Both the position numbers and the translations under genes were made by a program. From NCBI RefSeq assembly GCF_046105845.1, contig NZ_CP151004.1: a stretch of DNA of 64,000 bases. One strand, written 5' to 3'. Positions 22,163 to 36,536 of the stretch are shown here, in pieces. Within the stretch, counting starts at the first letter, position 1. Every line of letters starts with the position of its first letter. The notes under the pieces are model-generated. The model was not told the DNA's origin. It did no database searches and saw only the letters and a program-made list of their open reading frames with translations. The DNA comes from Escherichia coli (GTDB lineage Bacteria; Pseudomonadota; Gammaproteobacteria; Enterobacterales; Enterobacteriaceae).

Positions 22163-22294
22163 GGCTGCTCTCCGGCATTGAATGTGTGCAAGCGCACCAT
22201 AATGGTGCGAATTGCCGGCGGGTGTGGTGCGCCCGTCCGGCAGATTAATTTGTCGCAGAACGTCTATTGCTGGCTATCTGTAGGCTGGAACCAT

Positions 22295-22342
22295 CCCCTC
22301 GCCCCTTTGGGGAGAGGGTTAGGGTGAGGGGAAGCCCCGTCA
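22295..22342. repeat. GC-rich palindromic extragenic repeat in potF-potG intergenic region
   Basis: cccctcgcccctttggggagaggg near-perfect palindrome followed by ttagggtgaggggaagcccc; resembles a repeated intergenic element family of E. coli. Confidence 0.5.
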
Positions 22343-22366
22343 TACCTGTTCAGCAATCTGAACTGA

Positions 22367-27443: not shown

Positions 27444-29129
27444 GTGAATATAAACGTCGCCGAATTGTTAAATGGGAATTACATTCTGTTATTATTTGTG
27501 GTCCTCGCGCTTGGGCTATGTCTCGGAAAGTTACGACTTGGTTCGATCCAACTGGGTAATTCCATTGGCGTTTTAGTCGTATCGCTGTTATTAGGCCAAC
27601 AACATTTCAGCATTAACACCGACGCGCTTAATCTTGGCTTTATGCTGTTTATTTTCTGCGTCGGGGTCGAAGCCGGACCGAACTTTTTTTCCATTTTTTT
27701 TCGCGATGGGAAAAATTATCTAATGTTAGCACTGGTGATGGTTGGCAGTGCGCTGGTCATCGCCTTAGGGTTAGGTAAGCTGTTTGGCTGGGATATTGGC
27801 CTGACGGCCGGTATGTTAGCAGGATCTATGACGTCAACACCGGTTCTGGTCGGTGCTGGCGATACACTGCGTCATTCCGGCATGGAAAGCAGGCAGCTCT
27901 CACTGGCACTGGATAATCTGAGCCTCGGGTATGCCTTAACCTATTTAATCGGTCTGGTGAGTTTGATTGTTGGTGCGCGTTACTTGCCGAAATTGCAGCA
28001 TCAGGACTTACAGACCAGCGCCCAGCAAATCGCCCGCGAACGTGGCCTGGACACAGATGCCAACCGTAAGGTTTATTTGCCGGTGATCCGCGCCTACCGC
28101 GTCGGCCCGGAGCTGGTAGCCTGGACCGACGGCAAAAATCTGCGTGAACTGGGTATTTATCGACAAACCGGCTGCTACATTGAACGTATTCGACGTAACG
28201 GGATTCTGGCAAATCCAGACGGTGATGCCGTGCTACAAATGGGCGATGAAATAGCGTTGGTAGGCTACCCCGACGCCCACGCCCGACTCGATCCCAGCTT
28301 CCGTAACGGCAAAGAAGTTTTCGATCGTGACCTTCTCGACATGCGTATCGTCACTGAAGAAGTGGTCGTTAAAAACCATAACGCTGTTGGCAAACGCCTG
28401 GCACAACTGAAGTTGACCGATCACGGTTGCTTCCTTAACCGCGTCATTCGTAGCCAGATTGAGATGCCGATAGATGACAACGTCGTGCTTAACAAAGGTG
28501 ACGTTTTACAAGTCAGCGGCGATGCCCGTCGCGTAAAAACCATCGCCGATCGCATCGGCTTTATCTCGATTCACAGCCAGGTCACTGACCTGCTGGCATT
28601 CTGCGCCTTCTTTGTTATTGGGCTGATGATCGGGATGATCACCTTCCAGTTCAGCACATTCAGTTTCGGCATGGGGAACGCTGCCGGGTTGTTATTCGCC
28701 GGAATTATGCTGGGCTTTATGCGCGCTAACCACCCGACCTTCGGTTACATTCCGCAGGGTGCATTAAGCATGGTGAAAGAGTTCGGCTTAATGGTGTTTA
28801 TGGCAGGCGTTGGTCTAAGCGCCGGTAGCGGTATTAATAACGGCCTGGGCGCGATTGGCGGTCAGATGTTGATTGCCGGATTGATTGTCAGTCTTGTGCC
28901 AGTGGTTATCTGTTTCTTGTTCGGTGCTTATGTATTGCGAATGAACCGCGCACTGTTGTTCGGCGCAATGATGGGCGCACGCACCTGCGCGCCGGCAATG
29001 GAGATCATCAGTGATACAGCTCGCAGTAATATCCCGGCGCTGGGCTATGCGGGCACCTACGCAATCGCCAACGTCCTGCTGACGCTGGCAGGGACAATCA
29101 TCGTCATGGTATGGCCAGGATTAGGATAA
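27444..29129 (+). CDS. ybjL: Putative transporter YbjL (AAE family, two TrkA-C domains)
   Basis: 561-aa membrane protein with central soluble region. Confidence 0.88.
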
Positions 29130-29172
29130 AACTGAAGTTGCCCTGAAAATGAAATTTTTTTGCACAACCGCA

Positions 29173-29200
29173 GAACTTTTCCGCAGGGCATCAGTCTTAA
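29173..29200 (+). promoter_or_regulatory. Putative sigma-E promoter of rybB
   Basis: GAACTT (-35-like) about 16 nt upstream of tcttaa (-10-like), ending just before the rybB 5' end; RybB is a known sigma-E regulon member. Confidence 0.55.
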
Positions 29201-29205
29201 TTAGT

Positions 29206-29284
29206 GCCACTGCTTTTCTTTGATGTCCCCATTTTGTGGAGCCCATCAACCCCGCCATTTCGGTTCAAGGTTGGTGGGTTTTTT
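29206..29284 (+). ncRNA. rybB: RybB small regulatory RNA (Hfq-dependent, represses omp mRNAs)
   Basis: Sequence gccactgcttttctttgatgtcccc...ggttggtgggtttttt matches RybB as I recall it, with terminal hairpin plus U-tract; lies in the ybjL-rcdA intergenic region as expected. Confidence 0.85.
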
Positions 29285-29303
29285 GTTATCTAAAACTTAT
29301 CTA

Positions 29304-29840
29304 CTACCCTGCAACCCTCTCAACCATCCTCAAAATCTCCTCGCGCGATAGCGGCTTACGGTCGGTGACAAAATGCAGCGTCATCCCCTCAATAAACGCA
29401 TCAAGCGCGCGGGCGGTTCCGGGTTCAAACCATTGTTCGAGCGTTTGCTGACTGCGCTGCATCCAGTTTTGCATTACCGTTTTTAATAGCGGTTTTCGGC
29501 TAGCCAGCGCGTAGAGCTGGTACATCAGCTCCATGTTATCCGGCGTTGCAACCTGTGAGCTGTATATCATATCGGTGATAGCCTGGCATGCGCCCGTAGC
29601 ATCACTAACATCGCTAAAAAATGCCTGATATTGCCGGGACATGATCTCAGTAAAACTGCTGAACGCCTCAAGCAACAACTCATCAATTCCTGAAAAATAG
29701 TAGGTCATCGACCCCAACGGTACCCCGGCAAGGGTAGCAATTTTGCGGTGCGTAACAGCATGTATTCCATAAAGTTTCACCGCCTCCAGCGTGGCCTGGA
29801 TAATTTTTTCTCGCCGTTGCGGATCGTTAGCGCGACGCAT
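29304..29840 (-). CDS. rcdA: TetR-family transcriptional regulator RcdA (YbjK)
   Basis: N-terminal TetR HTH; start trimmed to [12 protein letters not shown]. Confidence 0.85.
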
Positions 29841-35333: not shown

Positions 35334-36536
35334 TTAAGAGAACCAGCTGCCGAACCACTGATGGAATTTCATCATAACGAAATCCCACATCCGCCCAAAG
35401 AATCCGCCCTCTTCCACATTTTCCATCACGATCAGCGGACGCTGCTCAATGGATTTACCGTTAAGCTGGAAATCAATGGTCCCGACAACCTGACCTTTTT
35501 TCAGCGGTGCGGTAAGCTGCGGTTCCGTTAACGTGTAGCTCGCTTTCAGGTTTTTCAGCTGCCCACGCGGTATGGTCACTGAGCCCGCTTCGCCTGCCCC
35601 GAGATTCACTTCGCTCTTATCACCAAACCAGACGCGCTGAGTCACAAAGGTGGCATCAGGTTTAATTGGCGTCACGGTTTCAAAGAAGCGGAAACCCCAG
35701 GTCAATAATTTCTCAGACTCATTAAAACGGATACGGTCAGTTTTCGCCCCCAGCACTACGGAGATTAAACGCATATCACCCTGGGTAGCCGAAGCAACCA
35801 GATTATATCCCGCGCCTGCCGTGGTTCCTGTCTTCATGCCATCAACATTCAGATTGCTGCTCCACAGCAGACGGTTACGGTTAGGCTGTCGAATTTTGTT
35901 GAAGGTGAACTCTTTCTCTTTATGAATGGCGTACTCTTCCGGCACATCGTGGATTAATGCTTTACCCAGCAATGCCATATCGCGCGCGGTACTGAACTGC
36001 CCCGGCGCATCCAGACCGTGCACCGTCTGGAAGGTAGTGTTGGTCAGACCCAGTTTTTTGGCATAACCATTCATCAGACCAATAAATGACTCCTGGCTCC
36101 CGGCAACGTAATCGGCCAGCGCAATACAGGCGTCATTACCGGACTGGATAATCACACCTTTGTTCAGGTCTGCCACCGAAACCTGATCGCCCGGTTTAAG
36201 GAACATTACCGATGAACCACGCAGTGCCGGATTTCCCGTCGCCCAGGCATCTTTACCGACCGTCACCATATCGGTGAGTTTAATCTTATCGGCCTTAAGC
36301 GCCTGCCCAACCACATAGCTGGTCATGATTTTAGTCAGGCTCGCGGGGTCCAGTTTTTCATCCGCATTGCCTTCTGCCAGCACTTTACCGCTGGCGTAAT
36401 CCATTAAAATCCATGCACGCGCATCCACGCTCGGCGCTTCAACGGTTTGTTCCGCCGCGAATGCCGTTGGGGCAAAAAGGAATAAAAATGCAGAACCCGC
36501 TGCAAGACCACGAAGGAGAGAGGAGTATTGCGTCAT
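35334..36536 (-). CDS. dacC: D-alanyl-D-alanine carboxypeptidase PBP6
   Basis: SxxK active-site motif (SLTK), SGN motif; start trimmed to [14 protein letters not shown]. Confidence 0.92.

Follow-up and report, generated by a model that had tools for sequence, protein, structure and literature searches.

The stretch 29206-29284 on the plus strand is, with a probability that we put at about 97%, the gene for RybB, a 79-nt small RNA that depends on Hfq and belongs to the sigma-E regulon of envelope stress. The DNA analysed, referred to here as the window, is 64,000 nucleotides of Escherichia coli sequence, and all coordinates without further label are positions in it. The locus is RybB itself, neither a relative nor a variant kind, and it occupies the spacer between ybjL and rcdA in which the initial annotation had placed it: ybjL ends 77 nt before the first base of the RNA, and the rcdA stop codon lies about 19-20 nt past its last. 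The features of the locus are these:

27444-29129 (+), ybjL, the upstream neighbour; open reading frame, annotated in matching genomes
29152-29161 (+), A/T tract AAATTTTTTT at -54 to -45, probably UP-element-like; conservation across 114 loci
29172-29180 (+), sigma-E type -35 element AGAACTTTT, core GAACTT at 29173-29178; 8/9 to the published motif
29194-29199 (+), sigma-E type -10 element GTCTTA; 4/6 to GTCAAA, conserved
29206-29284 (+), rybB, gene for the 79-nt RybB small RNA; Rfam RF00110 and the boundaries of K-12 b4417
29206-29230 (+), 5' target-recognition (seed) region GCCACUGCUUUUCUUUGAUGUCCCC; 25/25 identical to K-12
29240-29284 (+), Rho-independent terminator and presumed Hfq-binding 3' module; fold, Rfam consensus and covariation
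29274 (+), G for A at RybB nt 69, the single difference from K-12; alignment
29274-29300 (+), unoccupied attB for P2-like/Felsduovirus prophages, GTGGGTTTTTTGTTATCTAAAACTTAT; KE47 junction comparison
29304-29840 (-), rcdA (ybjK), the convergent downstream neighbour; annotated under the match

The identity of the gene was established in two ways. A covariance-model scan of the entire 64-kb window with Rfam 15 returned a single match at the gathering threshold, to RybB (RF00110), which reaches 104.1 bits where the gathering score is 40 and, with an E-value of 2.5e-20, lies far outside what chance would give. This match spans model positions 1-79 of 79, is not truncated and has maximal posterior probabilities; the Rfam model is simply offset by 3 nt from the gene, covering 29209-29287 (+) as against 29206-29284. 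The gene boundaries are those of the curated K-12 MG1655 record, which has the ncRNA rybB (b4417) between rcdA and ybjL, on the minus strand at 887979-888057: alignment sets 29206-29284 on b4417 base for base, with 78 of the 79 bases identical. Between the ybjL stop codon and RybB nt 68, promoter included, the identity to K-12 is 100%, and the window gene and K-12 RybB share boundaries, neighbours, promoter and seed; the one difference, A at nt 69 in K-12 and G in the window allele, puts a U·G wobble pair into the stem of the terminator. The initial annotation had taken the 79 nt for RybB as it is known, and this stands apart from the one base, at 29274, that departs from K-12. The Rfam scan and the K-12 alignment that it had proposed as checks both bore it out, the former with a match far above threshold, the latter with promoter and seed identical and one terminator-stem base changed; neither of the outcomes that it had named as speaking against RybB, lack of an Rfam match or mismatches within the seed, was observed, and we came upon nothing else that speaks against this identity.

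As a discovery rybB matters little, being an everyday gene in its usual ybjL-rcdA place: 5418 of 5426 complete E. coli genomes have its sequence, and the literature already covers RybB, the sigma-E promoter of the gene, the way in which the seed works and the use that prophages make of the locus for attachment. It is nevertheless overlooked by annotation based on open reading frames, as had been predicted. RefSeq E. coli genomes annotated by PGAP carry no rybB feature beneath the 79-nt match, and only the curated K-12 MG1655 record names the gene; since PGAP leaves E. coli rybB unlabelled, it takes an Rfam pass to find the gene.

Upstream of the gene, 86 bases are identical to K-12 and have the layout of a sigma-E promoter: AGAACTTTT, a 16-nt spacer after GAACTT, GTCTTA, a 6-nt discriminator and a G as +1 at 29206. 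Compared with the sigma-E motifs given by Papenfort et al. 2006 (PMC1804206), -35 GGAACTTTT and -10 GTCAAA, the -35 element has 8 of 9 matches and the -10 element 4 of 6. The GAACTT box had been pointed out in the initial annotation exactly where we find it; the accompanying -10 box, given as tcttaa, is present at 29195-29200, the best register being one base further left, as GTCTTA at 29194-29199. A bare motif of this kind is weak evidence because 0.26 sites of the form GAACTT-N14-16-GTCNNA are expected by chance in the window, where one is found; at least one such site arose in 24 of 100 shuffles of the window. The weight of the argument for a sigma-E promoter rests on the fixed distance of the motif to +1 and on its conservation, not on the motif alone.

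Conservation was read from a cross-species set of 120 loci, drawn from one-genome-per-species contigs with the exact 23-nt pattern CACTGCTTTTCTTTGATGTCCCC and spanning Citrobacter, Enterobacter, Salmonella, Klebsiella relatives, Serratia, Yersinia, Xenorhabdus, Proteus and Providencia. For the promoter, 114 distinct sequences, from Escherichia to Yersinia, Serratia and Proteus, were lined up on +1. Positions G-33 to T-27 are 98-100% conserved while their flanks vary; G-12, T-11, C-10, A-7, T-1 and G+1 are invariant; and the spacer from -25 to -14 varies freely, carrying nearly no information. Further upstream T occupies -48 to -45 in 85-94% of the loci and A occupies -54 to -52 in 68-76%; the A/T tract AAATTTTTTT is likely an UP-element-like part of the promoter. 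A promoter scanner reported no sigma-70 promoter at the locus, as expected for a sigma-E promoter.

Published work points the same way. The upstream regions of rybB and micA match the sigma-E motifs almost perfectly (Papenfort et al. 2006, PMC1804206); in Salmonella a mutation of rpoE leaves both with no more than background activity, rybB being strictly rpoE-dependent (PMC1804206); the 5' end of E. coli rybB has been mapped to the +1 G, as cited in PMC1804206, and its rpoE dependence is cited in PMC6694218; and a study of UP elements in sigma-E promoters counts rybB among the active ones (PMC3326320). Motif, conservation and this work on an identical sequence agree with the earlier description of the promoter as sigma-E-like, and it is on these that we would expect the window promoter to depend on sigma-E.

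At its other end the RNA finishes in the structure that had been noticed earlier as a hairpin followed by a U-run. A 12-bp stem joins 29240-29251 to 29269-29280, with a 3-bp inner mini-stem, and the hairpin (29240-29280) runs into a U6 tail at 29279-29284; the single-sequence fold has a predicted energy of -24.6 kcal/mol and a z-score of -2.19. The Rfam consensus structure contains the same 12 stem pairs as the predicted fold, and in an alignment of 27 diverse rybB variants six of the stem pairs show compensatory changes, for example G-C to A-U and U-A to C-G. The terminator hairpin is thus backed by real covariation. A terminator scanner flagged no hairpin here because the RybB loop exceeds its 8-nt limit. 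Two further hairpins suggested near the 5' end, CCAC/GUGG in the single-sequence fold and UCC.C/G.GGA in the alignment fold, were set aside: their pairs are all invariant and show no covariation.

The 5' seed was also found intact, as the initial annotation had it: GCCACTGCTTTTCTTTGATGTCCCC starts at 29206 and all 25 bases of the region are those of K-12. The invariance of RybB nt 3-25 across species is a product of the way the loci were retrieved, by exact seed, and is uninformative on seed conservation. Complementarity to known targets was assessed by RNAduplex against ompC and ompW of K-12 rather than of the window strain itself. RybB nt 1-8, GCCACUGC, pair perfectly with GCAGUGGC at ompC -48 to -41, and nt 1-7, GCCACUG, pair perfectly with CAGUGGC at ompW +14 to +20; the duplex energies are -24.4 kcal/mol (ompC) and -22.3 kcal/mol (ompW), and shuffled seeds did equally well or better in 1 of 500 trials for ompC and 12 of 500 for ompW.

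The way in which such a gene would act is established for RybB of E. coli K-12 and Salmonella (PMC1804206; PMC6694218, citing Johansen 2006, Thompson 2007, Papenfort 2010, Balbontin 2010 and Gogol 2011), and for the window strain can be extrapolated from its sequence. Build-up of unfolded outer-membrane proteins would free sigma-E from RseA, and sigma-E RNA polymerase would then initiate at the G at 29206 from AGAACTTTT-N16-(G)TCTTA, transcription stopping at the hairpin and U6 tail of 29240-29284. Hfq would bind the hairpin, the U tail and the A/U-rich stretch that precedes them, leaving the single-stranded 5' end (GCCACUGCUUUUCUUU...) to pair with many omp mRNAs, those of ompC, ompA and ompW among others; this pairing would block translation and speed mRNA decay. 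The resulting drop in porin synthesis, and a lighter load of unfolded porin, would feed back on sigma-E activity. Expression of the window gene, Hfq binding and repression of targets are all to be expected in this strain from the literature on the identical sequence.

RybB is one of several RNAs of this type. MicA and MicL are likewise sigma-E-dependent, Hfq-binding small RNAs that repress abundant envelope proteins (PMC1804206, PMC4102768, PMC6694218), but their sequences and loci, the luxS/gshA interval for MicA and the interior of cutC for MicL, are unrelated to those of RybB, and their target sets differ from its own or only partly overlap it. The RybB seed holds CRCUGCUUUU, a motif common to MicV and VrrA of Vibrio cholerae, which resemble RybB also in their repression of OMP mRNAs and in sigma-E control (PMC6694218); these two belong to other RNA families and another host, and RybB is absent from V. 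cholerae (PMC6694218).

Could the RNA be a by-product of its neighbour, the hairpin and U-run being merely the ybjL terminator and the RNA a piece of ybjL 3'-UTR with no gene of its own? The scanner, which handles loops of up to 8 nt, saw no terminator-like site between the ybjL stop (29129) and rybB, and ybjL and rybB remain linked in most of the 120 loci, in Enterobacteriaceae, Yersinia and Serratia. This reading nonetheless appears very improbable to us: in 114 loci the putative sigma-E promoter stays unchanged and keeps its distance to +1, whereas the spacer is otherwise free to drift, the E. coli 5' end has been placed at the +1 G (cited in PMC1804206), and in Xenorhabdus, Proteus and Providencia, loci of Morganellaceae type, rybB is present without an adjoining ybjL. 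The two roles are in any case compatible, and ybjL read-through probably does end at the RybB hairpin because no other terminator-like site was seen. That the region encodes a small protein has practically no likelihood at all. An open reading frame of 29 aa with a GTG start at 29204-29293 (+), together with overlapping short frames, appears in a mechanical list of open reading frames, and nothing more speaks for it; RybB nt 26-30 and the hairpin loop differ between species by indels of 1-3 nt, in numbers not divisible by three, and these break the frame of 29204-29293 and rule it out as coding, while changes in the stem are compensatory at the RNA level and the Rfam covariance model fits from end to end.

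A bona fide rybB gene might still be a decaying or functionally altered copy, and the A-to-G change in the terminator at 29274 would be the place to look for it. Nucleotide 69, on the 3' side of the terminator stem and outside the seed, pairs with U41, so that the change converts U41-A69 to U41·G69. G at nt 69 is absent from the other species sampled, and the variant therefore derived within E. coli; it weakens the stem, by a predicted 0.6 kcal/mol (-24.6 as against -25.2 kcal/mol for A69). Yet a U·G pair is a standard one and leaves the predicted fold as it was, G·U pairs occur in the same stem of other species, promoter and seed are intact, and the exact window allele is present in 738 complete E. 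coli genome records, a minority beside the 4681 records that match it at 98.7%, one base off, as K-12 does. Decay is accordingly a most unlikely reading, and rybB as an ordinary intact gene the one we keep; G69 is, on the predicted fold, a wobble variant that keeps the structure.

The 3' end of rybB doubles as a prophage attachment site, empty in the window. Among 5422 complete E. coli genomes, ~1129 match 28900-29600 with a break at 29287-29300, and in two of these, KE47 and PRO_A-1401, what interrupts the match is a prophage of the P2 family with its ogr end abutting rybB. The KE47 prophage, 35.8 kb long, lies between rybB and rcdA with its integrase adjoining rcdA, and its junctions read GTGGGTTTTTTGTTGCCTGAAATTTAT on the rybB side and GTGGGTTTTTTGTTGCCTATAATTTAT on the integrase side (positions 270-305 and 36140-36175 of the KE47 locus, L126). 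Comparison of the KE47 and empty-site junction sequences leads us to conclude that the att core overlaps the last terminator-stem bases and the U-run: the attB core comprises the terminator 3' arm, the U-run and ~13 downstream nt, and integration restores the 3' end of the RNA. No prophage lies between rybB and rcdA in the window, which has 100% coverage against empty-site genomes and is contiguous with K-12. Other genes of sRNA or tRNA type, ssrA/tmRNA for example, likewise offer their 3' ends as prophage attachment sites, and the CyaR 3' end is an attachment site for P2. Occupation of the rybB site has been described before, as hotspot #29 for Felsduovirus prophages 'within the small RNA rybB' of E. 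coli (PMC10121019) and as the Klebsiella island Kpn38RybB at rybB (PMC4048246).

The KE47 prophage carries genes annotated as a GmrSD restriction endonuclease domain protein, a RES family NAD+ phosphorylase and a P-loop NTPase, the cargo genes lying at L126 13895-15670, 24543-25697 and 26060-27952; this cargo fits a published report of defence systems in rybB prophages. Other material is also found at this spot: some E. coli genomes have a ~760-bp non-phage insertion between rybB and rcdA, which in E. coli DSM 103246 carries a gene annotated as serine acetyltransferase (L005 1061-1612).

What follows rybB differs greatly from species to species: rcdA is found anywhere from +100 nt to +10 kb, and several genera have homologues of ogr, gpD or integrase there. 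Of the 114 distinct loci, 49 have the motif (G/A)TTGCCTGAAAT directly after the terminator and 68 have NTTGCCT; motifs of the TTGCCTGAAAT type extend from Escherichia to Yersinia and include empty sites with rcdA directly adjacent. The window (29285-29298) and K-12 have a diverged form, GTTATCTAAAACTT, after the U-run, and E. coli attB variants read either GTTATCTAAAACTT or GTTGCCTGAAATTT. The motif may reflect phage-driven homogenisation or a host function, and might have a role for the host beyond that of a phage attachment core.

The position of nt 69 within this core bears on whether the window allele is neutral. G69 makes the rybB 3' end one base more identical to GTGGGTTTTTTGTT, the integrase-proximal junction of the KE47 prophage, and it is conceivable, though we think it improbable, that the base is not neutral and may change how RybB terminates, how stable the RNA is, or how efficiently Felsduovirus integrates here. 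Queries with 31-nt junctions found 168 genomes with G followed by GCCTGAAATTTA and 2157 with A followed by GCCTGAAATTTA, counts confounded by clonal structure. Because 2157 exceeds the ~1129 interrupted genomes, GCCTGAAATTTA must occur at empty sites too and is no prophage marker, and the counts are uninformative on a link between G69 and prophage occupancy, the question to which they were addressed.

Beyond the rybB locus the window is collinear with K-12 from 914,887 to 853,195, in reverse orientation, at ~96.4-97.9% identity. At 17497-17514, between rlmC and artJ, it lacks ~150 nt of K-12, and at 59556-59562, between ybiT and ybiU, ~67 nt. Between blocks aligning to the potF-potG region, ~120 nt at 22243-22364 are absent from K-12; they contain a G/C-rich imperfect palindrome, CCCCTCGCCCCTTTGGGGAGAGGGTTAGGGTGAGGGG, and look like a small intergenic repeat element. 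A 2.56-kb AT-rich island at 10357-12912, between ybjQ and ybjP, has 31-34% GC compared with ~55% in its flanks; absent from K-12, it is found in ~1122 of 5424 complete E. coli genomes (best identity 96.7%) and contains a single open reading frame of 600 aa, 10506-12308 (-), which other annotations give as a pentapeptide repeat-containing protein.
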